DNA of 64,000 bases from Squalus acanthias. Lineage: Eukaryota. Location of the stretch: positions 1,304,001 through 1,368,000 of the forward strand of contig JASTWF010000033.1 of NCBI GenBank assembly GCA_030390025.1, given 5' to 3'. A model generated the notes under the pieces. The model saw only the letters and a list, made by a program, of their open reading frames with translations, searched no databases and had not been told where the DNA came from. Shown here one piece after another: positions 17,623 through 61,115 of this stretch; position 1 is the stretch's first letter, and every line of letters begins with the position of its first letter. The translations under genes and the position numbers were made by a program.

Positions 17623-17819
17623 CGCCGGAGAACCCATCCTCCTGGAATGAATTGAGCGAGTTTGTCGCACTCCCCTCACTTCAGAAAAAAATGAGGTCAT
17701 TCACGTTGACCTAAAAAGGATAAATCAGAGAATTTTCTTAATTGTTCGAAGTTAGGAACAATGGCTGAGCAGAGAGAACTCGGGGTCCAAGTACAGAAAT
17801 CACTAGAAGCTCGTTGATA

Positions 17820-36300: not shown

Positions 36301-36590
36301 ATACACACCTGGCAGGATCCTGATACACCGTGAAACCCCATACACACCTGGCAGGATCCTGATACACTGTGAAACCCCATACACACCTGGCAGGATCCTG
36401 ATAAACTGTGAAACCCCATAATCAACTGGCAGGATCCTGATACACTGTGAAACCCCATACACACCTGGCAGGATCCTGATAAACTGTGAAACCCCATACA
36501 CACCTGGCAAGATCCTGATACACCGTGAAACCCCATACACACCTGGCAGGATCCTGATACTCTGTGAAACACCATACACACCTGGCGAGA
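30390..36590. repeat. 39-bp minisatellite (CCTGGCAGGATCCTGATACACTGTGAAACCCCATACACA); arms about 30390-31445 and 35236-36590, split by a CR1
   Basis: Tandem units on both sides of the insertion. Confidence 0.96.
31446..35235 (-). mobile_element. Near-full-length CR1 LINE: SGNH/GDSL esterase-type ORF1 (5' truncated) and APE-RT ORF2 broken by two frameshifts
   Basis: ORF1 motifs IGDSIV, PGA, IGTNN, DGLHL. ORF2 pieces 34232-34723 (YLNARS, AITETW), 32868-34124 (GDFN, SDH) and 31624-32895 (FADD). Flanking duplication CTGGCAG at 31439-31445 and 35236-35242. Confidence 0.96.
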
Positions 36591-38392: not shown

Positions 38393-40130
38393 ATGTTCAG
38401 CAGAAACACAAGGAAACACTCTGGGTACAAACTGAAACACTGAGAGTGAACACTATCCTAATAAAGGAGAAGGTTAAGGTTTTCCAGCTGGTTGATCGAT
38501 ACGCTGAGCTAACGGTCATTTCTACTGTTCGAGCTCGGAAACTTGTAGAACATGAACTGCTGGCAAGAGGCCGAGACCATGAAGAGTGGAGAGAGAAACA
38601 TCTCCAGGGAGAACTGGAGAAAATCCGAACTGATCAATTGTTCCACAGCAGTTTTTCCCGGAGAGAATCCAAATCTGGTAGTTCAGGAGCAGTGAGCGGT
38701 GTCCCGGGGATTGGAAAAACAACAATGGTACAAAAGATTGTTCATGACTGGGCCACTGGGAAAATATACCCACAGTTTCAATTTGTTTTCAGCTTTAAAT
38801 TCCGGGATTTGAACGCTATTAACTGTAGAATAAACCTGAGGAATCTGATACTGGATCTGTATCCTTACTTTGGGAATATTCTGAGAGAGCTCTGGAAGAA
38901 CCCAGAGGGATTGCTGTTTATATTCGATGGTTTGGATGAATTCAAGGACAGTATCGATTTTGCTGACAATCGGAGAAATACAGAACCTCAGCACATGTGC
39001 ACAGATCCTGAAGACTGGTGTGAAGTGTCTGACATTGTGTACAGTTTAATACAGCACAAGCTGCTCCCAGGATGTTCAGTGCTAGTGACCAGCCGCCCCA
39101 CTGCATTACATTTATTGGCAAAGGCTGAGATCAGTGTCTGGGCTGAAATCCTGGGATTTGTTGGTGAAGAACGGAAGGAATATTTCAACAAGTTTTTTGA
39201 TGATCAGACGGTGGCAGCAGCTGTTTTCAAACACGTGGAGGAGAACGAGATCCTGTACACAATGTGCTACAACCCTTCCTACTGCTGGATCCTCGGTCTG
39301 GCACTGGGTCCCTTCTTTACACAAAGAGACAGGAATCAGCAGCGAGTTCCCAAGACCATCACCCAACTATATTCCTACTATATTTACAACATTCTGAAAA
39401 ACCATGGCCGAGAGATTGAAAGCCCCCGTGATGTGTTACTGAAGCTTGGTGAGATGGGCTTCACAGGAGTCTCCGAGAAGAAGATTGTGTTTAGAAATGG
39501 AGATTTGATCAAGTACAATCTGCAACCTTCCCAGTTCCTGTCTGGGTTCATGATGGAACTTTTAGAGAGAGATGAATCTGCCCAGAGCGTGGTGTACACA
39601 TTCCCGCACCTCACCATCCAAGAGTTTACAGCCGCACTCACACAATTCCTGACTCCAGATCCCGGGGACATCCTGAAACTCCTCAGAGAATCCCACAACA
39701 AGAAAGATGGGCGATTTGAGATATTTCTCCGTTTTGTTGCTGGTCTCTCCTCCCCACAGGCAGCTCGGCCCCTGGAGGAGTTTCTGGGTCCATTTCTTCA
39801 TCAAACCACCTGCCGAGTGATTGACTGGGTGAAGGAGGGGGTTGAAGGAAAGATTGAGAACACAGGGAGTGAAACTGGGAAAAGGAACCTCCTGAACACA
39901 TTCCACTACCTGTTTGAGTCTCAGAATAAAGCACTGGCTCAGAAAACACTGGGATCTGTGAAATCACTTACATTTAATGGATTGACATTTACCCCGATTG
40001 ATTGTGCGGTCCTGTCTCACGTCATTGGACTCTGTGATACAATAGAAATCCTCGATCTACAGAACTGCAAAATTCAGTGTGAGGGACTCCAGCGGCTGGG
40101 ACCCGTACTGCACAAATGCCGGGAGTTGAG
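38393..40130 (+). CDS. NLR gene exon D: FISNA-like segment, NACHT NTPase, winged helix/HD2 and first LRRs (NLRC3/NLRP-like receptor)
   Basis: 1738-nt open exon with Walker A GVPGIGKT, Walker B LLFIFDGLDEF, sensor VTSRP, FPHLTIQEF and FLRFVAGL. GAAG acceptor (phase 1), AG|GTAACT donor (phase 2). Confidence 0.96.
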
Positions 40131-41019
40131 GTAACTGTTTATTTGTCTCGAACTGTTGGGAGAATTGTAGATCAGTCACGGATTGTATTGTTGCTCCGTA
40201 ATGTAGGATAAGAAACAGTTCAGTTAAACCAGAAAGAAGCAGATTCAACACCAATATGACCCATAATAAGTGGATCGGTCAGTAATTCTCTAAGGACTGG
40301 AGAATCTAAAATGGATCCTTGTGAACAAGTCGGGATTTTACAGTCTTTATCGGATCAGCAAATACAGGTCCCTGAGAGTCTGATAATTTAATTACAATAA
40401 ATCATGTTTAATAAGGCTGGACAGCGGAATGTAAACATAAAATATAATCCGGCAGTAAAGATAAAATTAATTTAAAATGTTTTCCACATCCACCATTTCA
40501 ACTGGGAACAGGAGAGAAACCCGAGTTTAAATCACTAACAGTTCGACATTTACTCCAATGCCGTGCAGGGTGTGTCCTGTCGAGGGGGTAGTTTCCTGGA
40601 TTGGGAATATTGGGGAATCGGGAATTCTTTCAGCTGTTAATGTTTACAATTATTCACAGTCCTGAACATTGAGTAAAGATTGATATTCAGGATCGTAAAC
40701 CTGCCGGTGAAAAGGTTCCAATCTAACCGGAGTACAGACACACACCGGCCAGCGGTGGGGCCTCGCACACAGCGGGCGGCTCCTGGGTAAACCGGGGGCA
40801 GTGAACCCGGGAATTCCCCATAATCCGCCCCCTGTGTGTGAGGCCCCACTCGGGGAGGGAACTTCCGAAAATTCCCCAAAAACTGTCCGTCCAGTTACAC
40901 CTGAAATAAATGTAGAGCCAGTTTAATGGGAATAAAGTGAGAGACTCTCCTCCCCTATAAACTAGGAGCACAGGGACATTTAAAACTTGTAACGGGACAG
41001 AATAAACTCTATATTGCTG

Positions 41020-42315
41020 CTATTGACAAACATTCACTATAAGCCCTCTGACTCCCACAGCTACCTGGAATATAATTCCTCCCACCTCGCTTCCTGTCAG
41101 GACGCTGGTCCATTCTCCCAGTTTTTCCGTCACCACCGCATCTGCTCTGACAATGCCACGTTCCATACTATTGCTTCCGACATGTCCACCTTGTTCCTCA
41201 TCCAAGAATTCCCCGCTACCATGGCTCTTGACTGTGTTCAGTCTATTTCCCACACTTCTGCTCTCATCCCTTCCCCTCCATCCCGGAACCACGATAGGGT
41301 TCCCCTTGTCCTCACCTTTCACCCCACCAGCCTCCACATTCAACAGATCATCCTCCGCCATTTCCGCCACCTCCAGCGTGATCCCAGCACCAAACAAATC
41401 TTCCCCTCACCTCCCCTTTCAGCATTCCGCAGGGACCGCTCCCTCCGCGACACCCTGGTCCACTCCTCAATCACCCCCAACACCCCTTCCCCTTCCCCCG
41501 GCACCTTCCCGTGCAAGTGCAGGAGATGCTGCACCTGCCCTTTTACCTCTTCCCTTCCCACTGTCCAGGGCCCCAAACACCCCTTCCAGGTGAAACAGCG
41601 ATTTCCTTGTACTTCTTGCAATTTAGTATACTGTATTCGCTGCTCACGATGCGGTCTCCTCTACATTGGGGAGACCAAACGCAGATTGGGTGACCGCTTT
41701 GCAGAACACCTCCGCTCAGTCCGTAAGTGTGACCCCGAGCTTCTGGTCACCTATCACTTTAATTCTCTGCTCGACTCCCACTCAGACCTCACCGTCCTCG
41801 GCCTCTAACACTCTTCCAACAAAGTACAACATAAGATCGAGGAACAGACCTCATCTTTCAATTAGGAACTTTACAGCCTTCTAGAATCAACATCTAGTTC
41901 AACAATTTCAGATTATAAACTCGGCCCCGATTTTACTTTTTTCATTGTTGTTTTTCCTTTTCCCTTTTTTCCCCTTTATGACAGCTGTTGATGATTCTGC
42001 CATTGCCATTCACACCTCATCTCAATTCATCTTTTGATTTTTAACTTGTCCCATTACCAGCTCCTTTTGCTGCACCATCATCCCTTTTGTCTTTTAATCT
42101 CTCCTGTCTTCCACCCTATCACAGACCTTCCCTTTTGTTCTTTCCTCCGCTCCCCCCACCTTTCCCGGCCCCGACACTTGCTGAAAAATCTGTTACATCT
42201 GTAACTTTTTCCAGTTCTGACCAAGGGTCCTCGACCTGAAACATTAACTCTGTTTCTCTCTCTTTTGATGCTGCCTGACCTGCTGGGGATTTCCAGCATT
42301 TCCTGTTTTTATTTT
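41020..42315 (+). mobile_element. 5'-truncated Penelope-like element (RT C-terminus, Cys-rich linker, GIY-YIG endonuclease, terminal repeat), Neptune-like
   Basis: ORF with YKPSDSHSYL, CKCRRCCTC and NLVYCIRCSRCGLLYIGETKRRLGDRFAEH. The tail has a decayed hammerhead-like motif CTGACCAAGGGTCCTCGACCTGAAAC at 42217-42243. Confidence 0.9.
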
Positions 42316-42609
42316 AGTATAAATTCTCCGTGTTATATAAAATCCTGGGGGACTGATTTTACAGCAGCAGTTAGCGTTTCACAATATAACTCACCCCGAG
42401 ATATTAGACAGATTAATATAATGCACAGAGTATAAAGTACAGGGAATCACCGCTGTATCATTTAATTCTGGGAAAATCACCCCATTCCCAGAAAATCCTG
42501 GATTTAAGGAGCAGCAGAAATGAGTCAAGTTTCTCCAAACATGACGAGGCCGGTCACTGAGCTCCAGGAGGGTAATTCTGATCATCAGGGAATGAGACCG
42601 AACTGAGGG

Positions 42610-44342
42610 AAACCCGGCCGCACCCGACCCGCCCCCGGCCCCACCCGAACCCGACCCCGGCCCAACTCGACTCCGGCCCCACCTGACCCGACCCCACCCG
42701 ACCATCCCCGGCCCCACCCGACCATCCACCGACCCCGGCCCCACCCGACCAGCCCCCGGCCCCACCCGACCATCTACCGACCCTGGCCCCACCCGACCAT
42801 CCACCGACCCCACCCGACCATCCACCGACCCTGGCCCCACCCGACCATCCACCGACCCCACCCGACCATCCACCGACCCCGGCCCCACCCGACCAGCCCC
42901 CGGCCCCACCCGACCATCCACCGACCCCGACCCCACCCGACCATCCACCGGCCCCACCCGACCATCCACCGACCCTGGCCGCACCCGACCATCCACCGAC
43001 CCCACCCGACCCGACCCCGGCCCCACCCGACCATCCACCGATCCCGGCCCCACCCGACCATCCCCCGACCCCACCCGACCATCCACCGGCCCCACCCGAC
43101 CATCCACCGACCCCGGCCCCACCCAACCATCCACCGACCCCGGCCCCACCCGACCATCCACCGACCCCGGCCCCACCCAACCATCCACCGACCCCGGCCC
43201 CACCCGACCATCCACCGACCCCGGCCCCACCCGACCATCCACCGGCCCCACCCGACCATCCACCGGCACCACCCGACCATCCACCGGCCCCACCCGACCA
43301 TCCACCGACACCGACCATCCACCGACCCCACCCGACCATCCACCGACCCCGACCCCACCCGACCATCCACCGACCCCGACCCCACCCGACCATCCACCAA
43401 CCCCACCCGACCATCCACCGACCCCGACCCCAACCCCACCCGACCATCCACCGGCCCCACCCGACCATCCACCGACCCCGGCCCCACCCGACCATCCACC
43501 GACCCCGGCCCCACCCGACCATCCACCGACCCCGGCCCCACCCAACCATCCACCGACCCCGGCCCCACCCGACCATCCACCGGCACCACCCGACCATCCA
43601 CCGGCCCCACCCGACCATCCACCGACACCGGCCCCACCCGACCATCCACCGACCCCGACCCCACCCGACCATCCACCGACCCCGGCCCCACCCGACCATC
43701 CACCGACACCGGCCCCACCCGACCATCCACCGACCCCGACCCCACCCGACCATCCACCGACCCCACCCGACCATCCACCGACCCCACCCGACCATCCCCC
43801 GACCCCGAACCCACCCGACCCGACCCCGGCCCCACCCGACCCGACCCCGGCCCCACCCGACCATCCCCCGACCGCACCCGACCATCCCCCGACCCCGGCC
43901 CCACCCGACCATCCACCGACCCCGGCCCCACCCGACCATCCACCGACACCACCCGTCCATCCACCGACCCCGGCCCCACCCGAACATCCACCGACCCCAC
44001 CCGACCATCCACCGACCCCGACACCATCCACCGACCCCACCCGACCATCCCCCGACACCACCCGACCATCCACCGACCCCGACCCCACCCGACCATCCAC
44101 CAACCCCACCCGACCATCCACCGACCCCGACCCCACCCGACCATCCCCCGACCCCACCCGACCATCCACCGACCCCGAACCCACCCGACCATCCACCGAC
44201 CCCACCCGACCATCCACCGACCCCGGCCCCACCCGACCATCCACCGACCCCGACCCCACCCGACCATCCACCGACCGACCCCACCCGACCATCCACCGAC
44301 CCCGGCCCCACCCGACCATCCCCCGGCCCCACCCGACCCGCC
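42610..44342. repeat. C-rich, CpG-rich simple satellite built from 5-6-nt modules (CCGACCCCGGCCCCACCCGACCATCCA)
   Basis: 1.7 kb with very few T and no G-runs on the + strand; Gly-rich translations on the - strand. Confidence 0.96.
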
Positions 44343-44477
44343 AAGGGGGAAATCGCGGGGGGAAACCGGGTTATTAATGTCCTGAAGTACTTTCAGTGAT
44401 TGCTGTAATATCCGAGAGAGAAAATATATCAGATCCGGGCTTTGATTCAGTTTGTTTCTCTCTCTGTTTGTGTTTAG

Positions 44478-44564
44478 ACTGAATCACAATAAACTGGGAG
44501 ATTCAGGAGTGAAACTAGTGTCTGTGGCTCTGAGGAACCCGGACTGTAAAATACAGACACTGAA
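44478..44564 (+). CDS. NLR gene exon E, ribonuclease-inhibitor-type LRR: LNHNKLGDSGVKLVSVALRNPDCKIQTL
   Basis: TGTTTAG acceptor, GAA|GTAAGT donor, 87 nt, phase 2-2. Absent from the ORF track. Confidence 0.92.
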
Positions 44565-44705
44565 GTAAGTACCAGACTGTGTGAGATTGTGTTTATAATA
44601 ACAGGATGTCTGACACTGAACATTATTATTAGTATCAGTAATAGTGTTATTAATAAACTCTGGGGATTGACTCTGATTCCTGTTATTTCTCTCTCTGATC
44701 CCCAG

Positions 44706-44873
44706 TCTATGGGCTGTCGGTCTCACAGATTCTTGTGCCGAGGATCTCGCCTCCGCTCTCAGTACAAACCGCTCACTGACGGATCTGAACCTGGGAGGAA
44801 ACTCCTTCACAGACCGATCTGTCCCCGCTCTCCGCCGCCTCACACTGACCTGCCGGAGTCTGGAGCGGATCGA
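44706..44873 (+). CDS. NLR gene exon F, LRRs: LWAVGLTDSCAEDLASALSTNRSLTDLNLGGNSFTDRSVPALRRLTLTCRSLERI
   Basis: CCCCAG acceptor, CGA|GTGAGT donor, 168 nt, phase 2-2, LxxLxLxxN motif. Confidence 0.92.
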
Positions 44874-45042
44874 GTGAGTGTTTGTGTAAATGTTTAATGT
44901 AATAAATAAAATATCAATGGGATTAAGGCACTGTGGGTAATATTTGTCTGTAATTATTATTGAAATATTAACCCCAGTCTCGCGGTTATATACACTGATG
45001 TTCAATCTGTTTATTTGCTGTTTAATCTTTAATCTGCTTCAG

Positions 45043-45130
45043 GCTGTGCTGGAATCGGTTCAGTTCAGACGGACAGAGACTCCTGAGGGCGCTGCAGGGA
45101 ACAAGACCCGGATTGAGAGTGATTGCGTAA
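45043..45130 (+). CDS. NLR gene terminal exon G: LCWNRFSSDGQRLLRALQGTRPGLRVIA-stop
   Basis: CTTCAG acceptor, phase 2, TAA at 45128-45130, capping-LRR-like pattern. Confidence 0.85.
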
Positions 45131-46959
45131 TAGAATTTAATTTAATTTAAGGGTTTCCCGCTCGAGCTGATTGCGTCATCGCCCATTGTGATGTCAGAGG
45201 ACCAGCCACAGGGTCACGTGACTCAGCCGCTCCCAGGCTGCACCGCTTTCAAAATGGATGTGAGAGTGAGTGTTTCTGCAAATTGCAGAGTCTGTCTGAG
45301 TGTGTCTGTATGTCATTTTGGTTTTAATCTTCCAACTCGGCAGTCATCCCTCTGCAGGCTGGCCAGGCTGTGAGTTTGTGTGTGACAAGGCAGGCTGGCA
45401 GGCAGAGAGAGAAATCAAGACAACATGCAAAATAAAATACTGAAAACTGTCTGTTTGCTTTTAAACTCCCAAACAGAGCAGAGCAATGATGAAAATCAAC
45501 TTTCTTTCATTGCTGACAGTGATTTGTGGCAATTTTGCAGGCTAGCTGTGTGAGAGAGAGAGAGAGACAGACAGCAAAAGCTGGTGTGTATGCAGGGCTT
45601 GTCTGTGTTCAAGTTATCTGCCGTGTGCATTGGTACTGCATCTATTGTCTGAAAAAAACTGAAAGTATATACCATTAGATCATACTCATTTAATTCCAGA
45701 ATACGCTGTGGTGGGATCTTACTTTGCCTTTCTTTCAAGAATTTTGTAAAAAGAAAATCTGCATATATACATCAAGCCATTTGATATTTTACTGGACTGG
45801 ACTTTATTGGGGAATGTTTGTGGAGTGTTTCATTGCACATCCTGCTGTGGGATCTTACTCTCCCCTTCAGCCCAACCCAAACAAGACAAGACATTTGCTA
45901 AAAAAAATTATATTTTTTTTAAATTATTTTCAGAATAATCCATTTGATTTTTTTCTGGACTGGTCTTTATTGGGGAATGTGCTTGGGATGTTTTCAGAGC
46001 AAAAGCTGCTGTGCGATCTTTCCATTCATTTTATTACACCCCAGGCAAACCACAGACAGGCAGACATTTAATTAACAGAAGTAAAGTATATATATTATTT
46101 ATTCCTGATTGTATTTACTTCTTTTCACCCTCCCGGGCTTTCATTTCCTCTCGGGGACCCGGATTTCTGGGGCCTCGGCTTCACTTCTTCCTGTTTGATT
46201 GTCCTCATCAAACATGGCCGCACAGCGAGGAAGGGACATTATCAAAAACTGACACTCCCAGGCTGCACATCTTTCAAAATGGATGTGTGTGTGTGAGGGT
46301 GAGTTTCTGCAAATTGCAGAGTCTGTGTGAGTGTGTCTGTAAGTGCGTGGGTGTCTGTGTGTCTGCAAATTGCAGAGTCTGTGAGTGTGTGTCATGTTAC
46401 TGTAACTTTTAGTTCTATGTGGGTAGGAGACTGTGTGACTGAGAGACAGACAGTCAGTGAGAGCGAGAGAGACATGAAATCAAAAGGCAAGTAGCAGAAT
46501 AGAAAGCCTGTTTCTGAAGGCCACAAAGTGAAAAGATAAGATACTGAAAAGTGTATTTTTGGTTTTAATCTTCCAACAAGGCAGTCATCCCTCTGCAGGC
46601 TGTGAGTGTGTGTGTGTGAGAGAGAGAGAGAGGGCAAAAGCTGGTGTTTCTGTGAGATGTGGTCTGCTGTCTTATTAACTGCTGTTGTTGTCTTAAACCC
46701 TAGTGATTTCATTCTAGCCTGGTCCACATGTAATGCTGTTGTGTATCACTTTATTGCACTTTATTTCATTTCACTTCAATTCAAGACCGACAGTCAGTCA
46801 GTGAGATACTGAAAATGTCTTTGTGGACTGTCTGACAATAAAAGCTGTCTGGGATCTTTGCATTCTTTTTATTCCACTCTACTCAAATCAAGACAAGGCA
46901 GGCAGGCTGGCAGGCAATGAGAGAGACACATGAAATCAAGACAACATGCAGAATAGAAA

Positions 46960-47206
46960 TAAAAACAGAAAATGCTGCAAATACTCAGTATGTTAGGCAG
47001 CATCAGTGGAGATACAGAGAAACAGAGTAAATGTTTCAGCTCGATGACCTTTCGTCAGAACTTTGACAGAATCTGACAAAAGGTGATCGAGCTGAAACAT
47101 TAACTCTGTTTCCCTCTCTCTCCACTGATGCTGCCTTACCTGCTGAGTATTTCCAAAACTTTCTGATTTTATTTCAGATTTCCCACATCCACAGCATTTG
47201 CTTTTG
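46960..47206. mobile_element. Palindromic non-autonomous Penelope-derived cassette (inverted terminal-repeat pair); further copies near 49840, 51631, 53476, 55220, 56996 and 58909
   Basis: The left ~100 bp is the approximate reverse complement of the right arm, and the right arm matches the tail at 42211-42315. Flanked by the direct repeat ATGCAGAATAGAAA (exact on both sides of the 49840 copy). Confidence 0.8.
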
Positions 47207-47368
47207 ATGCAGATTAGAAAGCCTGTTTCTGTAGGCCGCAAACTGAAAAGATAAAATACTGAAAACTGTCTCTTTGCTTTTAAACTGCTAAACAGAGCAG
47301 AGCAATGATAGAAATCAACTTTCTTTCATTGTTGACAGTGATTTGTGGCAATTTTAAGGCTGGCCTGT

Positions 47369-47402
<34 letters not shown>

Positions 47403-48113
47403 CAGACAGCAAAAGCTGGTGTGTATGCAGGGCTTGTCTGTGTTCAAGTTATCTGCCGTGTGCATTGGTATTGCATCTCATGTCTGAAAAAAACAGAAAG
47501 TATACACCATTAGATCATACTGATTTAATTCCAGACTGCGCTGTGGTGGGATCTTACTTTGCCTTTCTTTCAAGAATTTAGTAAAAAGCAAATCTACATA
47601 TATACATCAAGCCATTTGACATTTTTCTGGACTGGACTTTATAGGGGAATGTTTGTGGATTGTTTCATGGCATTTCCTGTTGTGGGATCTTACTCTCACC
47701 TTCAGCCCAACCCAAACAAGACAAGACCTTTAAAAAAAATATATATATATTATATTTTTAAAATTATTTTCAGAATAGTCCATTTGATTTTTTTCTGGAC
47801 TGGGCTTTATTGGGGAATGTGCTTGGGATGTTTTCAGAGCAAAAGCTGCTGTGGGATCTTTCCATTCATTTTATTACACTCCTGGCAAACCACAGACAGG
47901 CAGACATTTAATTAACAGAAGTAAAGTATATATATTTTTATTTATTCCTGATTGTATTTACTTCTTTTCACCCTCCCGGGCTTTAATTTCCTCTCGGGGA
48001 CCCGGATTTCTGGGGCCTCAGCTTCACTTCATCCTGTTTGATTGTACTCATCAAACATGGCCGGACAACCAGGAAGGGACATCATCAAAAATGGACACTC
48101 CCAGGCTGCAAAT

Positions 48114-48675
48114 TGTAAGACTAAAAAATTAATTGTAATAATGTAAGGGCAAATCAGCTGTAATATTTAAGATTAGTTGAACTGCTTAAAGGACTATAGT
48201 AAAGGTCAAAGTATCTCCCGAAGGCTACAAGCCGATGGAGACGGGTATAATTAGATAAAAGACCAGCTTGCTTAGGCTGCGGTATAGACAATGCAGACAC
48301 TGCAGAACAAAAACGTGAAGCATTGTTTTCTATAATAAACTAACCTCGAAAATGTGTAAGAATGAAACCTTGCAGTGCAGGTGGCTGACCACTATTAAAC
48401 AAAAGCAGAATAAAGGATGAGTTTCGCTAACAGTGTAAGATTCTAATCAAGTTGTTTTTAGAGACCCTAAGGGTCGCTCATGATGTAACAACTGTGCTGA
48501 TGTTTGTATTTTCTGGCTTCTGGAAGTGTATAAAGAAGCTTGGCTGACCACTATTAAATTGAGAAGCTGGTCATTAGACCGCGGGGGCTATGACTCTTCT
48601 CCCAATGTGCTTTGAATAATAAACTGTGATCTTTTGCTTTGAGACAGACGCGAGTGAATTAATTTTTCACCAACA
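48114..48675 (+). mobile_element. Solo LTR (562 bp)
   Basis: TG...CA ends, exact 5-bp TSD CAAAT (48109-48113 and 48676-48680), TATAAA near 48529, AATAAA near 48618. The site is empty in the other units. Confidence 0.9.
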
Positions 48676-49056
48676 CAAATCTTTCAAAATAAATGTGTGT
48701 GTGTGTGAGTTTCTGCAAATTGCAGTGTCTGTGTGAGTGTGTGTGACATGTTACTGTAAATTTTAGTTCAGTGTGGGTGGGATTAAGACTGAGTGAGAGA
48801 CAGACAGACAGTCTGTGAGAGAGAGAGACATTAAATCAAAAGGCATGTTGCAGAATAGAAAGCCTGTTTCTGTAGGCCGCAAAGTGAAAAGATAAGATAC
48901 TGAAAAGTGTCTTTTTGGTTTTAATTTTCCAACACGGCAGTCATCCCTCTGCAGGCTGGCCAGGCTGAGAGTGTGTGTGAGACAGAAAGAGGGCAAAAGC
49001 TGGTGTTTGTTTGCGATGTGGTCTGCTGTCTTATTACCTGCTGTTGTATTAAACCC

Positions 49057-49576
49057 TGTCGAAGTTTGACTTCCGATTAAAGACTCTTGTAAACAATATC
49101 GTCAAAGAAGGCTTTTTATTATATTTTACTTGCAAGAAGACTGCAACCATAGCCCAATTAGCTATGATGACAGACTGCCGAATCACAGAAAATGGAGTAT
49201 TCTTATACAGTATAATATCACATGACATGTTGTTTAAGGTAAGCTAAGTTAACAATTAGAAAAAACACATTAGAAATGCCTTACAATGAGACTAGCTAAT
49301 CTCTATAAAATGGAGTCTATCTATTTTACTTCTCGCACCAAGGCCAAGGCGACTGGTTTGTTTACTTTACTAGCCCTTGGTTATCTCAATATTAAGCCTG
49401 TTTTCTTTTGTGCAGGCAGTCTTTTGCTGACAGCATAGTCTAGGAATTATAAGTTATTTTCAGAAAAGAACATAACAATGGATTTTTTCCCTTTTCCACA
49501 CAAGTCAGAGTCGGCCATTTTATTAGTTTAAATTCAAGGACACCATTTTGTCCGAGACAAAAACTGCACTTCCACA
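49057..49576 (-). mobile_element. Solo LTR (520 bp), unrelated to the previous one
   Basis: TGTCGAAGT...ACTTCCACA inverted termini, minus-strand AATAAA near 49115 and TATAA near 49203. The site is empty in the other units; TSD is imperfect. Confidence 0.8.
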
Positions 49577-52500
49577 TTCCTAGTGATTTCATTCTGGCCT
49601 AGTCCACATCTAATGCTGTTGTGTATCACTTCATTGCACTTTATTTCATTTCAATTCACTTCAAGACAGCCGGTCAGTCAGTGAGATACTGAAAATGTCT
49701 TTGTGGACTGTCTGACAATAAAAGCTGTCTGGGATCGTTGCATTCTTTTTATTCCACTCTACTCAAATCAAGACAAGGCAGGCAGGCTGGCAGGCACTGA
49801 GAGAGACACATGAAATCAAGACAACATGCAGAATAGAAATAAAAACAGAAAATGCTGGAAATACTCAGTATGTTAGGCAGCATCAGTGGAGATACAGAGA
49901 AACAGAGTAAATGTTTCAGCTCGATGACCTTTCGTCAGAACCTTGCCAGAAACTGAAAAAAGGTAATCGAGCTGAAACATTAACTCTGTTTTTCTCTCTC
50001 TCCACAGATGCTGACTTACCTGCTGAGTATTTCCAGCATTTTCTGATTTTATTTCAGATTTCCCACATCCACAGCACTTCCTTTTGATGCAGAATAGAAA
50101 GCCTGTTTCTGTAGGCCGCAAACTGAAAAGATAAAATACTGAAAACTGCTGTCTGTTTGCTTTTAAACTGAGAAACAGAGCAGAGCAATGATAGAAATCA
50201 ACATTCTTTCATTGCTGACAGTGATTTGTGGCAATTTTGCAGACTGGCCTGTGTGTGTGAGAGAGAGAGAGAGACAGACAGCAAAAGCTGGTGTGTATGC
50301 AGGAATTGTCTGTGTTCAAGTTATCTGCCATGTGCATTGGTATTGCATCTCATGTCTGAAAAAAACAGAAAGTATACACCATTAGATCATACTGATTTAA
50401 TTCCAGACTGCGCTGTGGTGGGATCTTACTTTGCCTTTCTTTCAAGAATTTAGTAAAAAGCAAATCTACATCTATAGATCAAGCCATTTGATATTTTTCT
50501 GGACTGGACTTTATTGGGGAATGTTTGTGGAGTGTTTCATGGCACATCCTGCTGTGGGATCTTAATCTCCCCTTCAGCCTAACTGAAACAAGACAAGAAA
50601 TTTGTTAAAGAAAAAGTATATATTATATTTTATTAATGATTTTCAGAATAATCCATTTGATTTTTTTCTGGACTGGGCTTTATTGAGGAATGTGCTTGGG
50701 ATGTTTTCAGAGCAAAAGCTGCTGTGCGATCTTTCCATTCATTTTATTAGACTCCAGGCAAACCACAGACAGGCAGACATTTAGTTAACAGAAGTAAAGT
50801 ATATATATTATTATTTATTCCTGATTGTATTTACTTCTTTTCTACCTCCCGGGCTTTCATTTCCTCTCGGGGACCCGGATTTCTGGGGCCTCGGCTTCAC
50901 TTTTTCCTGTTTGTTTGTCCTCATCAAACATTGACGCACAGCCAGGAAGGGGCATCATGAAAAATTTACACTCCCAAGCTGCACCCCTTTCAAAATTAAT
51001 GTGTGTGTGTGAGTTTCTGCAAATTGCAGAGTCTGTCTGAATGTGTGTGTCATGTTACTGTAAATTTGAGTTCAATGTGGGTGGGAGGGAGACTGTGTGA
51101 ATGGCAGACAGACAGTCAGTGAGAGTGAGAGAGACATGAAATCAAAAGGCAAGTAGCAGAATAGAAAGCCTGTTTCAGTAGGCCACAAAGTGAAAAGATA
51201 AGATACTGTAAAGTGTCTTTTTGGTTTTTATCTTCCAACATGGCAGTCATCCCTCTGCAGGCTGGCCAGGCTGTAAGTGTGTGTGTGTGAGAGAGAGAGA
51301 GGGCAAAAGCTGGTGTTTGTGTAAGATGTGGTTTGCTGTCTTATTACCTGCTGTTGTTGTATTAAACCCTATTGATTTCATTCTGGCCTGGTCCACATGT
51401 ATTGCTGTCGTGTATCACTTTATTGCACTTTATTTCATTTCACTTCCCTTCAAGACAGACAGTCAGTCAGTGAGATATTGAAAAATGTATTTGTGGACTG
51501 TCTGACAATAAATGTTGCTCTGGGATCTTTGCATTCTTTTTATTCCACTCTACTCAAATCAACACAAGGTAGACAGACAGGCTGGCAGTGAGAGAGACAC
51601 ATGAAATCAAGTCAACATGCAGAATATAAATGAAAAGAAAAAGCTGGAAATTTTCAGTATGTTAGGCAGCATCAGTCGAGATTCAGAGAAACAGAGTAAA
51701 TGTTTCAGCTTGATGACCTTTCGTCAGAACCTTGCCAGAAACTGACAAAAGGTAATCGAGCTGAAACATTAACTCTGTTTTTCTCTCTCTCCACAGATGC
51801 TGCCTTACCTGCTGAGTATTTCCAACATTTTCGGATTTTATTTCAGATTTCCTACATCTACAGCATTTGCTTTTGATGTAGAATAGAAAGCCTGTTTCTG
51901 TAGGCCGCAAAATGAAAAGATTAAATACTGAAAACTGTCTGTTTGCTTTTAAACTGCCAAACAGAGCAGATCTATGAAATAAATCAACTTTCTTTCATTG
52001 CTGACCGTGATTTGTGACAATTTTGCAGGCTGGCTGTGTGTGTGTGTGCGTGTGTGAGAGACAGACAGACAGCAAAAGTTGGTGTGTATGTAGGGCTTGT
52101 CTGTGTTCAAGTTATCTGCCATGTGCATTGGTACTGCATCTCATGTCTGGAAAAAAAACAAAGTTTGCTCCATTTTATCATATTGATTTAATTCCAGACT
52201 GCATTGTTGTGGGATCTTACTTTGCCTTTCTTTCAAGAATTTAGTAAAAAGCAAATCTACATATATACATCAAGCCATTTGATATTTTTCTGGACTGGAC
52301 TTTATAGGGGAATGTTTGTGGAGTGTTTCATGGCACATCCCGCTGTGGGATCTTACTCTCACCTTCAGCCCAACCCAAACAAAACAAGACACTTAAAAAA
52401 AAGGTAGATATGATATTTTTTAAAAATTATTTTCAGAATAATTCCTTAGATTTTTTCTGCACTGGGCTTTATTGGGGAATGTGCTTGGGATTTTTTCAGA

Positions 52501-55500
52501 GCCAAACTGGCTGTGCGATCTTTCCATTCATTTTATTACACTCCAGGCAAACCACAGACAGGCAGACATTTAGTTAACAGAAGTAAAGTATATATATTAT
52601 TTTTTCCTGATTGTATTTAATTCTTTTCACCCTCCCGGGCTTTCATTTCCTCTCGGGGACCCGGATTTCTCGGGGCCTCAGCTTCACTTCTTCCTGTTTG
52701 ATTGTCCTCATCAAACATGGCCGCACAACCAGGAAGGGACATCATCAACAATTGACACTCCCAGGCTCCGAATTTTTCAAAATAATTGTGTGAGTGTGAG
52801 TTTCTGCAAATTGCAGAGTCTGTGAGTGTGTATGTATGTGTGTGGGTATCTGTGTGTCTGCCAATTGCAGAGTCTGTGTGAGGGTGTGAGTGATAATGTA
52901 AATTTTAGTTCAATGTGGTTGGGAGGGAGACTGAGTGAGAGACAGACAGACAGACAGTCAGTGAGAGAGAGAGAGACATGAAATCAAAAGCAAGTTGCAG
53001 AATAGAAAGCCTGTTTCTGTAGGCCACAAAGTGTAAAGATAAGATACTGAAAGTGTCTTTTTGGTTTTAATCTTCCAACACGGCAGTCATCCCTCTGCAG
53101 GCTGGCCAGGCTGAGTGTGTTTGTGAGAGAGAGAGATGAGAGAGGGCAAAAGCTGGTGTTTGTGTGCGATGTGTTCTGCTGTCTTATTACTTGCTGTTGT
53201 TGTATTAAACCCCATTGATTTCATTCTGGCCTGGTCCACATGTAATGCTGTCGTGTATCACTTTATTGCACTTTATTTCACTTCACTTCACTTCAAGTCG
53301 GACAGTCAGTGAGTGAGATGCCGAAAAATGTCTTTGTGGACTGTCTGACAATAAAAGCTGCTCTGGGATCTTTGCATTCTTTTAATTCCACTCTACTCAA
53401 ATCAAGACAAGGCAGACAGGCAGGCTGGCAGGCAGTGAGAGACACATGAAATCAAGACAACATGCAGAATCGAAATAAAAACAGAAAATGCCGGAAATAC
53501 TCCATAGGTTGGGCAGCATCAGTGGAGCTACAGAGAAACAGAGTAAATGTTTCAGCTCGATGACCTTTCGTCAGAACCTTCCCAGAAACTGACAAAAGGT
53601 AATCGAGCTGAAACATTAACTCTGTTTCTCTCTCTCTCCACAGATGCTGCCTTACCTGCTGAGTATTTCCAGCATTTTCTGTTTTCATTTCAGATTTCCT
53701 ACATCCACAGCATTTGCTTTTGATGAAGAATAGAAAGCCTGTTTCTGTAGGCCGCAAAATGTAAAAATTAAATACTGAAAACTGTCTGTTTGCTTTTAAA
53801 ACTGCCAAACATAGCAGACAGTGATTTGTGGCAATTTTGCAGGCTGGCTGTGTGTGTGTGTGTGTGAGTGTGCGACAGAGAGAGAGACAGACAGCAAAAG
53901 CTGGTGTGTATGCAGGGCTTGTCTGTGTTCAAGTTATCTGCCATGTGCATTGGTACGCCATCTCATGTCTGAAAGAAACAGAAAGTTTACTGCATTTGAT
54001 CATATTGTTTTAATTCCAATTGTTTGTGGAGTGTTTCATGGCACATCCTGCTGTGGGATCTTACTCTCCCCTTCAGCCCAACACAAACAAGACAAGACAT
54101 TTGTTAGAGCAAAAGTATATATTATATTTTTTGATTGTTTTCAAATAATCCATTTGATTTTTTTCTGGACTTGTCTTTATTGGGGAATTTGCTTGGGATG
54201 TTTTCAGAGCAAAAGCTGCTGTGGGATCTTTCCATTCATTGTATTACACTCCAGGCAAACCACAGACAGGCAGACATTTAATTAACAGAAGTAAAGTATA
54301 TATTTTATTTAATTCTGATTGTATTTACTTCTTTTCACCCTCCCGGGCTTTCATTTCCTTTCGGGGTCCCGGATTTCTGGGGCCTCGGCTTCACATCTTC
54401 CTGTTTGATTGTCCTCATCAAACATGGACGCACAGCCAGGAAGAGACATCATCAAACATTGACAGTCCCAGGCTGCAAATCTTTCAGAATAAATGTGTGT
54501 GTGTGAGTTTTTGCAAATTGCAGAGTCTGTGTGAGTGAGTTTGTATGTAAGTGGGTGTCTGTGTGTCTGCAAATTGCAGAATCTCTGTGTGTCTGTGTGA
54601 CATGTCACAGTAAGTTTTAGTTCACTGTGGATGGGAGGGAGAGTGTGTGTGTGAGAGACAGACAGACAGATAGCCAGTGAGAGGGCGAGACATGAAATCA
54701 AAAGGCAAGATGCAGAATAGAAAGCCTGTTTCTGTAGGCCACAAAGTGAAACGATAAGATACGGAAAAGTGTATTTTTGGTTTTAATTTTACAACATGGC
54801 AGTCATCATTCTGCAGGCTGGCCAGGCTGTGAGAGTCTCTCTTTGTGTGTGTGTGTGTCAGAGAGAGAGAGAGAGAGGGAGAGAGGGCAAAAGCTGGTGT
54901 TTGTGTGAGATGTGGTTTGCTGTCTAATTACCAGCTGTTGTTGTATTAAACCTTATTGATTTCATTCTGGCATGGTCCACATGTAATGCTGTTGTGTATC
55001 ACTTCATTGCACTTTATTTCATTTCACATCACTTCAAGACAGACAGTCAGTCAGTGAGATACTGAAAAATGTATACGTGGACTGTCTAACAATAAAAGCT
55101 GCTCTGGGCTATTTGCATTCTTTTTATTCCACACTACTAAATTCAAGACAAGGCAGACAGGCTGGCTGGCAGGCAGTGAGATAGACACACATGAAATCAA
55201 GACAACATGCAGAATAGAAAGAAAAAAAATGCTGGAAATACTCAGTAGGTTAGGCAGCATCAGTGGAGATACAGATAAACAGAGTAAATGTTTCAGCTCG
55301 ATGACCTTTCATCAGAACCTTGCCAGAATCTGACAAAAGGTCATCGAGCTGAAACATTAACTCTGTTTCTCTCTCTCTCCACAGATGCTGACTTACCTGC
55401 TGAGTATTTCCAGCATTTTCTGATTTTATTTCAGATATCCCACATCCACAGCACTTCCTTTTGATGCAGAATAGAAAGCCTGTTTCTGTAGGCCACAAAC

Positions 55501-58500
55501 TGAAAAGATAAAATACTGAAAACTGTCTGTTTGCTTTTAAACTGCCAAGCTGAGCAGAGCAATGATATAAATCAACTTTCTTTCATTGATGCCAGTGATT
55601 TGTGGCAATTTTGCAGTCTGGCCTGTGTCTATATGTGTATGTGAGAGAGAGAGAGACAGCAAAAGCTGATGTGTATGCAGGGCGTGTCTGTGTTCAAGTT
55701 ATCTGCCGTGTGCATTGGTACTGCATCTCATGTCTGAAAAAAACAGAAAGTATATACAATTAGATCATACTGATTTCATTCCAGACTGCAATGCAGTGGG
55801 ATCTTTCTTTGCCTTTCTATCCAGAATTTTGAAAAAGCAAATCTACATATATACAACAAGACATTTGATACTTTTCTGGACTGGACTTTATAGGGGAATG
55901 TTTGTGGATTGTTTCATGGCATATGCTGTTGTGGGATCTTACTCTCCCCTTCAGCCCAACACAAACAAGAGAAGACTTTTGTAAAAAAAAAATATATGTT
56001 ATATTTTTTAAATTATTTTCAGAATAACCCATTCGATTTTTTCTGATCTGGGATTTATTGGGATTGTTTTCAGAGCAAAAGCTGCTGAGCGATCTTTCCA
56101 TTCATTTTATTACAGCCCAGGCAAACCACAGACAGGCAGACATTTCATTAACAAATGTAATGTATATATATTATTATTTATTACTGATTGTTTTTACTTC
56201 TTTTCAGTCTCCCAGGCTTCCATTTCCTCTCGGGGACCCTGATTTCTGTGGCCTCGGCTTCACTTCTTCCTGTTGGATTGCCCTCATCGAACATGGCTGC
56301 ACAGCCAGGAAGGGACATCATCAGAAATTGATACTCCCAGGCTGCACCTCTTTCAAAATGGATGTTTGGGTGTGTCTGTATGTGGATGGGTGTCTGTGTG
56401 TCTGCCAATTGCAAAATGTGTGTTTGTCATGTTACTGTAAATTTTAGTTCAACGTGGGTGGGAGGGAGACTGTGAGTGGCAGACAGACAGTCAGTGAGAG
56501 CAAGAGGGACAAGAAATCAAAAGGCAAGTAGCAGAATAGAAAGCCTGTTTCTGTAGACCATAAAGTGAAAAGATAAGATACTGAAAAGTGTCTTTTTGGT
56601 TTTAATCTTCCCACACGGCAGTCAACTCTCTGCAGGCTGGCCAGGCTGTGAGTGTGTGTGTGAGAGAGAGAGAGTGGGCAAAAGCTAGTGTTTGTGTGAG
56701 ATGTGGTCTGCTGTCCCATTACCTGCTGTTGTTGTATTAAACCCTATTGATTTCATTCTGGCCTGGTCCACATGTAATGCTGTTGTGTATCACTTCATTG
56801 CACTTTATTTCATATCACTTCACTTCAAGACAGATAGTCAGTCAGTGAGATACTGAAAAATGTCTTTTTGGACAGTCTGACAATAAAAGCTGTCTGGGAT
56901 CTTTGCATTCTTTTATTCCACACAACTCAAATCAAGACAAGGCAGACAGGCAGTGAGAGAGACACATGAAATCAAGACAACATGCAGAATAGAAATGAAA
57001 ACAGAAAATGCTGGAAATACTCAGTATGTTAGACAGCATCAGTGGAGATACAGAGAAACAGAGTAAATGTTTCAGCTCGATGACATTTCGTCAGAACTTT
57101 GCCCGAATCTGACAAAAGGTAATCGTGCTGAAATATTAACTCTGTTTCTCTCTCTCTCCACAGAAGCTGGCTTACCTGCTGAGTATTTCCAACATTTCCT
57201 GCTTTTATTTCAGATTTCCCACTTCCACAGCATTTGCTTTTGATGCAGAATAGAAAGCCTGTTTCGGTAGGCCGCAAACTGAAAAGATAAAATACTGAAA
57301 ACTGTCTGTTTGCTTTTAAACTGCCAAACATAGCAGAGTAATGAAGAAATCAACTTACTTTCATTGCGGACAGTGATTTGGGGCAATTTTGCAGGCTGGC
57401 CTGTGTGTGTGTGTGTGTGAGAGAGAGAGACAGACAGCAAAAGCTGGTGTTTATGCAAGGCTTGTCTGTGTTCAAGTTATCTGCCGTGTGCATTGGTACT
57501 GCATCTCATGTCTGAAAAAAACAGAAAGTATACACCATTAGATCATACTGATTTAATTCCAGACTGCACTGTTGTGGGATCTTACTTTGCCTTTCTTTCA
57601 AAAATGTTGTAAAAAGCAAATCTACATATACATCAAGCCATTTGATATTTTTCTGGACTGGACTTTATAGGGGAATGTTTGTGGAGTGTTTCATGGCACA
57701 TCCTGCTGTGGGATCTTACTCTCCCCATCAGCCCAACTCAAACAAGACAAGAAATTTGTTGAAGAAAAAGTATATATTATATTTTTTAAATTATTTTCTG
57801 CATAATCCATTTGATTTTTTTCTGAACTGGGCTTTATTGGGGAATGTGCTTCAGTTGTTTTCAGAGCAAAAGCTGCTGTGCGATCTTTCCATTCATTTTA
57901 TTACACTCCAGGCAAACCACAGACATGCAGACATTTAATTAACAAATGTAATGTGTATATATTATTATTTATTCCTGATTGTTTTTACTTCTTTTCACCC
58001 TCCCGGGCTTTCACTTCCTCTCGGGGACCCGGATTTCGGGGGCCTCGGCATCACTTCTTCCTGTTTGATGTACCTCATCAAACATGGATGCACAGTCAGG
58101 AAGGGACATCATCAAAAATAGACAGGCCCAGGTTGCACCACTTTCAAAGTAATTGTGTGTGTGTGTGTGAGTGTGAGTTTCTGCAAATTGCAGAGTCTGT
58201 GCAAGTGAGTCTGTATGTGAGTGGGTTTCTGTGTGTCTGGAAATTGCAGAGACTGTGTAAGTGTGTCTGTATGTGCGTGGTTGTATGTGTTTTTGCAAAT
58301 TGCACAGTCTGTGTGAGTGTGTGTGTCATGTCACTCTAAGTTTTAGTTCACTCTGGATGGGAGGGAGAGTGTGTGAGTGAGAGACAGACAGACAGATAGC
58401 CAGTGAGAGAGCGAGGCATGCAATCAAAAGGCAAGATGCAGAATAGAAAGCCTGTTTCTTTAGGCCAAAAAGTGAAAAGATAAGATACAGAAAAGTGTAT

Positions 58501-60224
58501 TTTTGGTTTTAATTTTCCAACATGGCCGTCATCATTCTGCACGCTGGCCAGGCTGTGAATGTGTGTGAGAGAGAGAGAGAGAGAGAGGGCAAAATCTTGT
58601 GTTTGTGTGAGATGTGGTCGGCTCTCTTATTATCTGCTGGTGTTGTATTAAACCCTATTGATTTCATTCTTGCCTGGTTCAAATATAATGCTGTCGTGTA
58701 TCAATTTATTGCACTTTATTTCACTTCACTTTACTTCAAGACAGACATTCAGTCAGTGAGATACTGAAAAATGTCTTTGTGGACTGTCTGACAGTAAAAG
58801 CTGCTCTGGGGTCATTGCATTTTTTTTATTCCACTCCACTGAAATCAAGACAAGGCAGACAGGCAATGAGCGAGACACATGAAATTAAGACAACAGGCAG
58901 ACTAGAAATCAAAACAGAATGCTGGAAATACTCAGCAGGTCAGGCGTCGTCTGTGGAGAGAGGGAGAAACATAGTTAATGTTTCAGTTCGATGACCTGTC
59001 GTCAGAATCTTGCCAGAATCTGACGAAATGTCATCAAGCTGAATTAACTCTGTTTCTCTCTCTCTCCACAGATGCTGCCTGACATGCTGAGTATTTGCGG
59101 CATTTTCTGTTTTAATTTCAGATTTCCAGCATCCGCAGAATTTTGCTTTTGATGCAGAATAGAAAGCCTAACTCTGTAGGCCGCAAAATGAAAAGATAAG
59201 ATACTGAAAAGTGTTTCTTTACTTTTAAACTGCCAAACACAGCAGAGCAATGAGAGAAATCAACTTTCTTTCATTGCTGACAGTGTTGTGTGGCAATTTT
59301 GCAGACTGGCCTGTGTTTGTGTGTGTGCGTGAGAGAGAGACAGAGAGCCAAAGCTGGTGTGTATGCAGGGCTTGTCTGTGTTCAATTTATCTGCCGTGTG
59401 CATTGGTACTGTATCTCATATCTGAAAAAACAGCAAGTATACTCCATTAGATCATACTGATTTCATTCCAGACCGCACTGATGTGGGAGCTTACTTTGCC
59501 TTCCCTTCAAGACTTGTAAAAATCAAAGCTACATATTTACAACAAGCCATTTGATTTTTTTCTTGACTGGACTTTATCGGGGAATGTTTGTGGGAAGTGT
59601 CAGAGCATATCCTGCTGTTGGATCTTACTCTCCCTTTAATTCCCAACCCAACTAAGACAAGACAAGACTTTTGTAAAAACAAAGTATATATATATTATAT
59701 TTATTTTATTATTATTTTCAGAATAATCCATTTGATGTTTTTCTGGACTGGGCTCTATTGGGGAATGTTTGTGGAGTGTTTTCAGAGCAAAAGCTTCTGT
59801 GAGATCTTTCCATTCATTTTATTCCAGTCCACTCAAATCACCGAATGCAGACATTTCATTTACAGAAGTAAAGAACAAATGTTATTATTATTATTTATTC
59901 ATGATTTTATTTGCTTCTTTTCACCCTCCATGCCCATCTCTTGGGGCGTCAATTACCCCCAACATTCATTTCACCCCCTCCAATCCCCCAGCCCCTTTTG
60001 GTCCTGAGCTTCACACTCACTCACTCACAACAGGAGCCGAGCTGCCGAGCTGCAGCCGCCATTCCTTCCTTCCTTCCTCCCTGCACCATGTGCTGCCAGC
60101 CTGGGTATGTGTGAGCAGCAGCACTGCCTGTGAGCGGCTCCAGACAATGGCACAAAGCAGCGGGGCGGGACCCCATCCTGCAACACCAGTGGCGCCCATT
60201 TAAAATCACAGTCCACCGCAAAGC

Positions 60225-61092
60225 GCAATTATTCTGCAAAGTGCTATTCCATTGCAAAGTGCTATTATATTGCAAAGTGCTATTTCATTGCAAAGGACTA
60301 TTATATTGCAAAGTGCTATTCCATTGCAAAGGACAATTATATTGCAAGTTGCTATTCCATTGCAAAGGACAATTATATTGCAAGTTGCTATTTCATGGCA
60401 AAGGACTATTATATTGCAAAGCGCTATTTCATTGCAAAGGGCAATTATATTGCAAGTTGCTATTTCATGGCAAAGGACTATTATATTGCAAAGCGCTATT
60501 TCATTGCAAAGGACTATTATATTGCAAGTTGCTATTCCATTGCAAAGGACAATTATATTGCAAGTTGCTATTTCATGGCAAAGGACTATTATATTGCAAG
60601 TTGCTATTCCATTGCAAAGGACAATTATATTGCAAGTTGCTATTTCATGGCAAAGGACTATTATATTGCAAAGCGCTATTTCATTGCAAAGGGCAATTAT
60701 ATTGCAAGTTGCTATTTCATGGCAAAGGACTATTATATTGCAAAGCGCTATTTCATTGCAAAGGACTATTATATTGCAAATTGCTATTCCATTGCAAAGG
60801 GCTATTCCATTGCAAAGGACTATTATATTGCAAATTGCTATTCCATTGCAAAGGACTATTATATTGCAAATTGCTATTCCATTGCAAAGGACTATTATAT
60901 TGCAAAGTGCTATTCCATTGCAAAGGACTATTATATTGCAAATTGCTATTCCATTGCAAAGGACTATTATATTGCAAAGTGCTATTCCATTGCAAAGGAC
61001 TATTATATTGCAATGTGCTATTCCATTGCAAATACTATTATATTGAAAAGATCTATTCCATTGTAAAGTGTTATTCCATTGCAAAGGACAAT
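60225..61092. repeat. AT-rich satellite, 36-bp dimer of 18-bp subunits (CTATTCCATTGCAAAGGA/CTATTATATTGCAAAGTG)
   Basis: TTGCAA or TGGCAA recurs every 18 bp. Confidence 0.95.
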
Positions 61093-61115
61093 AATAAAAT
61101 TATATAAATTTACCG

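Follow-up and report, generated by a model that had tools for sequence, protein, structure and literature searches.

A Penelope-like element fold-back with decayed hammerhead motifs, very probably dead and multiplied passively by tandem duplication behind an NLR gene of Squalus acanthias

The stretch analysed here (the window) comprises 64,000 nucleotides of the Squalus acanthias assembly GCA_030390025.1 (contig JASTWF010000033.1, positions 1,304,001 to 1,368,000, forward strand). Behind an NLR gene it holds a tandem array in which a palindromic cassette with two divergent hammerhead-ribozyme-like motifs recurs seven times. These cassettes had been predicted from the letters alone (the original prediction), and a blastn comparison of the first cassette with the window finds all seven where they were predicted, between 46946 and 59165, as seven forward and seven inverted matches that are 82-100% identical to the first. 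We consider it very probable that they represent one dead fold-back insertion of a Penelope-like element (PLE), passively multiplied by tandem duplication and without a selected function.

Insertions of PLEs are described with an inverted truncated copy, a one-sided tail of 30-40 bp and a target-site duplication (PMC3846280, PMC8557442); our comparison with the literature draws on main texts, and the supplements of PMC4209133 and bioRxiv 10.64898/2026.07.22.740005 may list shark motifs. In each cassette, the 3' end of a Neptune-type PLE occurs twice in head-to-head orientation, together with a 31-nt tail on one side and a target-site duplication of 14 bp; without the duplications, all seven measure 243-247 bp. 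The arms are ~104 nt long, are 84-87% complementary to each other and are separated by a spacer of 12-14 nt. The original prediction had described a near-palindrome of ~245 bp flanked by a 14-mer. The cassette itself stands, but the palindrome proper spans ~220 bp and is followed by the tail, which sits on the right arm only in 7/7 cassettes; the 14-bp word, found on both sides of every cassette with 0-2 changes, is the target-site duplication and lies outside the cassette. The same word occurs once, uninterrupted and without a cassette, in a related sub-repeat of all seven units. Site, orientation, centre junction and private changes are common to the seven cassettes. With a PLE terminal repeat, an inverted head-to-head truncated copy, a one-sided tail, and a duplication accompanied by an empty site, the cassette reads as a PLE fold-back insertion by every structural test run. 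A miniature inverted-repeat element (MITE) of a DNA transposon was rejected because the inverted arms derive from PLE ends and a tail is present on one side only, and chance motifs were likewise rejected as the source of the cassette hammerheads.

The sole non-cassette match of the first cassette in the window is a single, eighth arm at 42213-42317, which the original prediction had missed. Situated 4.7 kb upstream of the first cassette, it matches each of the 14 cassette arms at 77-84% identity and ends a 5'-truncated, decayed element in an intron of the NLR gene. The open reading frame (ORF) of this element (40993-41805) matches Pfam GIY-YIG with E=3e-4, just under the curated cut-off, and its protein is 58% identical to a zebra shark and 56% to a bamboo shark protein, its best relatives. 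Longer relatives of the ORF all carry Pfam PF26215 (18/18); ten have RVT_1, three of those ten also GIY-YIG, and one relative of 902 aa aligns with it at 44% identity over 257 residues. By these features the intronic element is classed as a PLE. A CX2-5CXXC linker before a C-terminal GIY-YIG domain is shared by the Neptune and Nematis clades (PMC8557442), and the intronic parent, like Neptune PLEs, has this arrangement, with a CX4CXXC linker before its GIY-YIG domain; the Neptune name is the best fit, resting on the linker rather than on a reverse transcriptase (RT) tree, as the RT core is absent from the truncated copy. The C-terminus of a zebra shark protein model (P0001), LMKGLRPKRQ, resembles the frame LTKGPRPET that crosses the intronic hammerhead motif. 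The model seems to read through the hammerhead of its own element, which would place the motif at the same position in another shark.

The origin of the cassette was also assessed in assembled contigs of public sequencing runs. Contigs of four of 20 runs were compared over 44400-48100, and the letter differences, joints and loose ends reported here are among those listed. Contig depth, which is a sum over contigs and not a copy number, is far greater on the cassette than on its flanks in run X1 (318-440 thousand vs 10-68 thousand) and in run X11 (18-37 thousand vs 0.2-3 thousand), and in all four runs the three cassette bins stand several-fold to more than tenfold above the flanks. Loose ends of contigs pile up at 46956, 47062 and 47199, and beyond 47062 they read like the body of the intronic PLE. 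The depth step and the loose ends thus support both the cassette borders and the PLE origin, and the PLE terminal family is very abundant in these contigs. Pattern scans for the arm returned no match in viral contigs and none in metagenome contigs; a protein pattern scan of metagenomes returned 179 pattern matches, none of which was confirmed.

The original prediction had taken the motifs for minimal type I hammerheads of the PLE type. The homology of the arms to the PLE end and the motif parse support this, and identify the motifs as descendants of such hammerheads. Positions are given in the standard hammerhead numbering. None of the 14 cassette arms carries an intact hammerhead. As predicted, the CUGANGA and GAAA boxes are intact on all seven minus arms, and the core (C3 U4 G5 A6 G8 A9 G12 A13 A14 A15.1 U16.1) is present on 7/7 minus arms and 0/7 plus arms. 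Six plus arms have A at position 8, in agreement with the reported loss of G8; the seventh (U7) has a 3-nt deletion in the GAAA box, so that all seven are damaged. G8 is the proposed general acid of the hammerhead (PMC6155905), and changing it abolished a PLE hammerhead (PMC11167929). A U3-A8 covariant exists among hammerheads (PMC4209133); unlike it, the cassette motifs keep C3.

The helices are damaged on both arms. Stem II retains 2-4 of its five pairs and is complete in 0/14 arms, compared with 5/5 pairs in the intronic copy; its central C is kept in none (G in 13, A in one). Thirteen arms have lost the self-complementarity of helix III, which reads ACAU in 12 and is deleted in one, and the palindromic AUAU is found only in R6, an arm without G8. 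The predicted mismatches in stems I-III and the decay of ACGT to ACAT are thereby borne out, with a stem II mismatch in every arm. Helix I has 0-2 contiguous pairs from the core in 14/14 arms and four in the intronic copy. The minus arms, with their complete core, pair 3-4/5 in stem II and 2/4 in a dimer helix III, and six of the seven have a U-U mismatch at the first stem I pair. An active minimal hammerhead was rejected as a candidate on these three helices (an intact helix II, a palindromic dimer helix III and a helix I of 4-5 pairs). By comparison, the family consensus drawn from loose contig ends (175 contigs in X1 with agreement 0.6, and 37 in X11 with 0.77) pairs perfectly along the 5 bp of stem II and has a palindromic ACGU. 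Because both arms share the stem II change and other departures from the family sequence, their common template probably already carried it.

A match to a hammerhead model had been proposed as a check; no hammerhead family appears among 36 Rfam matches at E<=10, a search whose sensitivity to an intact minimal motif was not gauged, and the top rows, which are models of miRNA precursors, stay well under their gathering scores and cover the hairpin only. Folding predictions argue against activity. In the cassette context, the closing pair of stem II forms with a probability of at most 2e-11, and opening the core would cost 17-24 kcal/mol. In isolation stem II reaches at most 0.04 in cassette arms vs 0.23 in the intronic copy, and taken alone it gives a stable fold in 0/14 arms (0 to -0.1 kcal/mol). 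The head-to-head geometry means that a transcript of either strand would carry each motif downstream (3') of the sequence complementary to it, and in a read-through RNA, if made, each motif would be buried in a ~90-bp hairpin. Release of unit-length RNAs by self-cleavage, one of two predicted outcomes, therefore finds no support. Most likely the cassette hammerheads do not self-cleave, and the fallback of the original prediction, dead relics inherited from a founder unit, is the most likely account of 0/14 intact motifs with shared lesions.

A chain of hairpins on read-through was the other predicted outcome. Folding of the first cassette is far better than that of shuffled sequences (z -17.4 and -18.3 on the two strands, 0/200 shuffles as good), and on either strand a cassette is predicted to form 78-95 pairs, which include uninterrupted helices 12-31 bp long. 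The arms of the same cassette nonetheless differ at 103/703 sites (14.7%; units not independent), about as much as U7 differs from the other units. Such a figure would result if the arms began identical shortly before the first duplication and then decayed without constraint, and their decay matches the background rate. Within U1-U6 the two arms show neither compensatory nor shared changes; in U7 two minority letters are common to both arms, and both match the intronic copy. Among 55 distinct mismatches between the arms, 31 abolish pairing on the two strands alike, and wobble pairs are divided 12:12. As sequences, the hairpins bear no sign of being maintained. On read-through, the geometry of the predicted chain would hold; a transcript specific to this locus was not seen in the contigs of the four runs.

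If the cassette was inserted once and then copied, it is expected to share its history with the surrounding unit. Units are spaced at 1.74-1.91 kb, except for a first spacing of 2.88 kb that is due to two later insertions. One of these (48114-48675, 562 bp, TG...CA ends, 5-bp duplication CAAAT) looks like a solo LTR; the other (49057-49576, ~520 bp) also has TG...CA ends, is without a clean duplication and has no other copy in the window. Units U1-U6 differ from each other by 7.0-11.8% and U7 from the rest by 12.1-14.5%. A further unit without a cassette, U0 (~45230-46490), had been overlooked; it differs from U1-U6 by 6.4-10.1% and from U7 by 14.3%. Being close to U1-U6 yet lacking the cassette and ~40 bp beside it, U0 probably lost its cassette. 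In the divergence, rate and motif analyses, region borders at the duplication are 2 nt off; core positions were found by search and are unaffected. About 86% of the unit is non-PLE DNA. In 4/4 runs, many divergent contigs lie over each of the 30 bins that span the NLR end, U0 and U1, so the unit flanks are multi-copy themselves. Such contigs come from runs of three organisms over the non-PLE part (44400-48100), which is probably a 3' flank common to many NLR paralogues or an undescribed repeat.

These observations are consistent with the following course of events. A Neptune-type PLE would have made one very short, 5'-truncated insertion ~1.8 kb behind the NLR gene, probably from an already damaged template, leaving two head-to-head copies of its last ~105 nt, the tail on one of them and the 14-bp duplication; the enzymatic route is taken from the literature. 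The ~1.8-kb stretch with the cassette would then have been duplicated in tandem at the DNA level, probably by unequal exchange, separating U7 from the rest first and then U0-U6. Later U0 would have lost its cassette, and the two other insertions would have landed between U1 and U2. The cassettes would be passengers, most likely with nothing selected, and any RNA crossing them would form ~90-bp imperfect hairpins as a by-product.

Coordinates of the PLE, cassette, hammerhead, array and NLR features in the window
Feature	Position	Strand	Details
5'-truncated, decayed Neptune-type PLE (best fit) in NLR intron	40993..42317	+	RT thumb, CX4CXXC linker, GIY-YIG endonuclease, 3' untranslated region, terminal arm
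Terminal arm of intronic PLE with minimal hammerhead motif	42213..42317	+	stem II 5/5, stem I 4/4, C at position 8
Cassette U1	46946..47220		duplication 46946-46959, left arm ~46956-47059, right arm ~47072-47175, tail 47176-47206, duplication 47207-47220
Cassette U2 with both duplications	49826..50100		
Cassette U3 with both duplications	51617..51889		
Cassette U4 with both duplications	53462..53736		
Cassette U5 with both duplications	55207..55477		
Cassette U6 with both duplications	56982..57256		
Cassette U7 with both duplications	58895..59165		most divergent unit; 3-nt deletion in plus-arm GAAA box
Minus-strand hammerhead relic of U1	47024..47062	-	C3 at 47058; C3 of other units at 49938, 51727, 53574, 55315, 57094, 59005
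Plus-strand hammerhead relic of U1	47069..47107	+	C3 at 47073; C3 of other units at 49953, 51742, 53589, 55330, 57109, 59020
Empty paralogous target site, one per unit	46492..46505		others at 48848, 51154, 52995, 54710, 56529, 58436
Tandem array of ~1.8-kb non-coding unit	45230..59929		one cassette-less unit (U0) and seven cassette-bearing units, last partial
Unit U0, without cassette and ~40 bp of adjoining flank	45230..46491		45388-45439 matches left flank, 45429 onward right flank
NLR gene, 3' part	38393..45130	+	NACHT exon 38393-40130; LRR-type exons 44478-44564, 44706-44873; last exon 45043-45130 with TAA

The NLR gene predicted upstream of the array is real: it matches Pfam NACHT (E=2e-37), NOD2_WH and NLRC4_HD2, and four exons with AG/GT borders give one open frame of 692 codons up to the TAA at 45128-45130. 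Expansion of NLR genes in sharks has been reported (PMC8455134). The array starts ~100 bp past the stop codon. This closeness of the cassettes to the gene looks incidental because about half of the window is tandem repeat (this 14.7-kb array and thirteen others, 18.3 kb). AATAAA is found at 45431 and 46837, both upstream of the first cassette. The former is the first after the stop codon, lies within 45425-45440, the U0 junction without a cassette, and is a candidate polyadenylation signal.

Seven of the 20 runs are of RNA type by guess, none being on record as RNA, and their contigs give no strand, ends or level. A spliced NLR joint near 44562-44706 is present in two RNA-type runs and absent from two DNA-type runs, so these two guessed-RNA runs do hold NLR-family RNA. 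The long RNA-run pieces listed over the array differ from the window by many letters and so come from paralogues or other species. No excess of A>G changes is seen over the array (15 and 18 in RNA-type vs 16 and 17 in DNA-type runs). A joint across the hairpin in two RNA-type runs was not used, as it consists of one contig each with 21 letters on the short side. Read-through at this locus is neither shown nor excluded by the contigs of the four runs. In six of the seven cassettes, on the NLR strand, the right arm has a splice-acceptor-like polypyrimidine tract followed by CAG (e.g. 49989-50007), lost in U1, which could trap read-through transcripts. Just past the NLR stop codon, 45140-45235 holds motif clusters that resemble NF-kB, CRE/AP-1 and E-box sites, and ~46190-46260, with copies in each unit, holds a weak inverted repeat that encloses ETS- and YY1-like motifs; past these promoter-like clusters the depth of guessed-RNA contigs rises, a weak hint.

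Selection on the ribozyme core is expected to slow its divergence relative to the flanks, as the original prediction had proposed. The flanks were compared without gapped columns, simple-repeat stretches and a misaligned patch of U2. Variable columns make up 245/880 in the flanks vs 66/218 in the non-core cassette (p=0.50). The minus core has no variable position (p 0.03-0.10, depending on the control), and the plus core varies at 3/11 positions (p=0.63); for both cores together the count is 3/22 (p=0.10). A slid mask of the minus core has zero variable columns in 3.1% of 852 placements, removal of CpG sites gives p=0.051, and comparison with the same four-letter words in the flanks (23/114) gives p=0.096 for the minus core and 0.35 for both arms.

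Several points weigh against a single dead insertion without function. The minus core is invariant in all seven units (0/11 vs 245/880, p=0.028), and neither core varies when U1-U6 are taken alone (0/22, p=0.005; context-matched, 0.034). As evidence of selection this signal is weak, since the minus arm was picked for being intact, dropping U7 is post hoc, the damaged plus cores of U1-U6 are equally invariant, and helix positions around the minus core vary at 9/28; it is nevertheless the one unexplained hint. Invariance does not track catalysis, as the U1-U6 plus cores are invariant despite the lesion at position 8. In addition, the empty site is a paralogous sub-repeat and not an allele, and the tree of units has no well-supported fork. 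Even in the better-kept intronic motif stem II reaches just P=0.23; the folding programs, which take neither dimers nor help from proteins into account, make activity unlikely rather than impossible, and one PLE hammerhead cleaved only with its protein (PMC11167929).

Against this background, we regard it as very improbable that the fold-back was co-opted as a cis-regulatory RNA array behind the NLR gene, whether through a hairpin chain that feeds editing, Dicer or sensing of double-stranded RNA (dsRNA), or through a minus core that still cleaves and limits antisense RNA. In its hairpin form, which is less likely still, the ribozyme would be dead, and read-through or unit-promoter RNA would give rise to as many as seven hairpins of ~90 bp, whose editing, dicing or sensing would tune NLR expression or innate signalling. 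The extensive pairing on either strand, the start of the array so close to the stop codon and the RNA-type contigs over all 30 bins of the NLR end, U0 and U1 would fit such a role. However, the arms of U1-U6 show no compensatory or shared change, most mismatches break the pair on both strands with wobbles evenly split, and U0 lacks a cassette altogether; both AATAAA signals precede the first cassette, and the RNA-run pieces come from paralogues or other species, with A>G changes alike in the two run types.

An even more doubtful reading is that the minus motifs are weakly active, cleaving as dimers or with the PLE protein in antisense transcripts from in or near the spacer, so that their core is under purifying selection and the array resembles a large non-LTR retrozyme releasing unit-length RNA. 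Their cores are indeed invariant and, as in retrozymes (PMC7229834), the motifs recur head to tail on a single strand with one copy per unit, but the mismatched stem II, dimer helix III and first stem I pair, the variable helix positions, the equal invariance of lesioned plus cores and the choice of the minus arm for its intactness all speak against it, as does the unit size given below. Least likely of all, the cassettes would be seven independent insertions of a mobile palindromic mini-element at a preferred site, or the array would have been built by PLE-mediated rolling-circle copying. The abundance of the family and the ability of PLE ends to mobilise host DNA in trans (PMC3846280) make this conceivable. 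Yet site, orientation, centre junction and private lesions are the same in all seven cassettes, the cassettes have diverged in step with their flanks (U7 being the outlier), the related empty site in every unit stayed empty, and units that differ by 7-14% arose over a long time. Independent insertions were rejected, being largely refuted by the shared junction and lesions. A single insertion followed by passive duplication is the reading retained here.

Papers of 2013-2014 describe inverted PLE ends with a tail, a duplication and opposed hammerheads (PMC3846280, PMC4209133), and by this comparison the architecture can be regarded as already published and the insertion as an ordinary, known kind. 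The cassettes resemble complex endonuclease-positive PLE insertions in their head-to-head terminal copies, 31-nt tail on one arm, flanking duplication and extreme 5' truncation (PMC3846280; PMC8557442). Unlike complex insertions with an inverted pLTR, they have no ORF between the arms and were later multiplied in a tandem array, and their duplication is 14 bp vs 8-10 bp in rotifer examples (PMC3846280; PMC8557442). The motifs share with PLE minimal hammerheads the type I order, an extra nucleotide after A9, a 4-bp helix I and the lack of a monomeric helix III (PMC4209133). In contrast to the hammerheads of that paper, no cassette copy is free of lesions in helix or core; helix II has 5 bp vs 7-8 bp given for Schistosoma, and the two motifs of a pair are just ~15 nt apart at C3, compared with about 100-700 bp for the opposite-strand pairs reported there in 2014. 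Animal non-LTR retrozymes, reported in one chondrichthyan, are likewise tandem repeats with a type I hammerhead motif per unit derived from PLE ends (PMC7229834; bioRxiv 10.64898/2026.07.22.740005). Their units measure 150-450 bp (PMC7229834) or 51-972 bp (bioRxiv 10.64898/2026.07.22.740005) vs 1.74-1.91 kb here, where most of the unit is non-PLE and the motif, never intact, lies in a duplication-flanked fold-back that pairs with it. A non-LTR retrozyme was rejected by unit size and because no two consecutive units hold a complete hammerhead. No paper was found on this shark PLE family or on such an array behind an NLR gene in a search that left most subscription papers outside.

Elsewhere in the window, other retroelement remains lie in four regions: 31627-34169 (minus strand), with a LINE-type endonuclease and RT frame, 14791-19460, 9991-12954 and 61098-64000. 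RT fragments are found at 17100-17675, 14791-15138, 10784-11170 and 61862-62191, and an integrase core at 18312-19460. Dense minisatellites occupy 2-7496, 22815-24313, 27481-28596, 30394-31445, 35236-36586, 42622-44340 and 60218-61096; the same 39-bp unit occurs on both sides of the LINE region, and a 61-bp unit in three blocks.

As best explained, the cassette array is a tidy fossil of little import. It shows a PLE fold-back that brings its own empty-site control and can be dated in relative terms, the insertion having occurred shortly before the first duplication of the array. Both arms carry the same damage, which suggests that they were made from an already defective template; this would fit the finding that PLEs can insert in vitro without hammerhead cleavage (PMC11167929). 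Should transcription of the hairpin chain and its control over the NLR gene be demonstrated, the array would represent retroelement dsRNA co-opted at an innate-immune gene of a cartilaginous fish.

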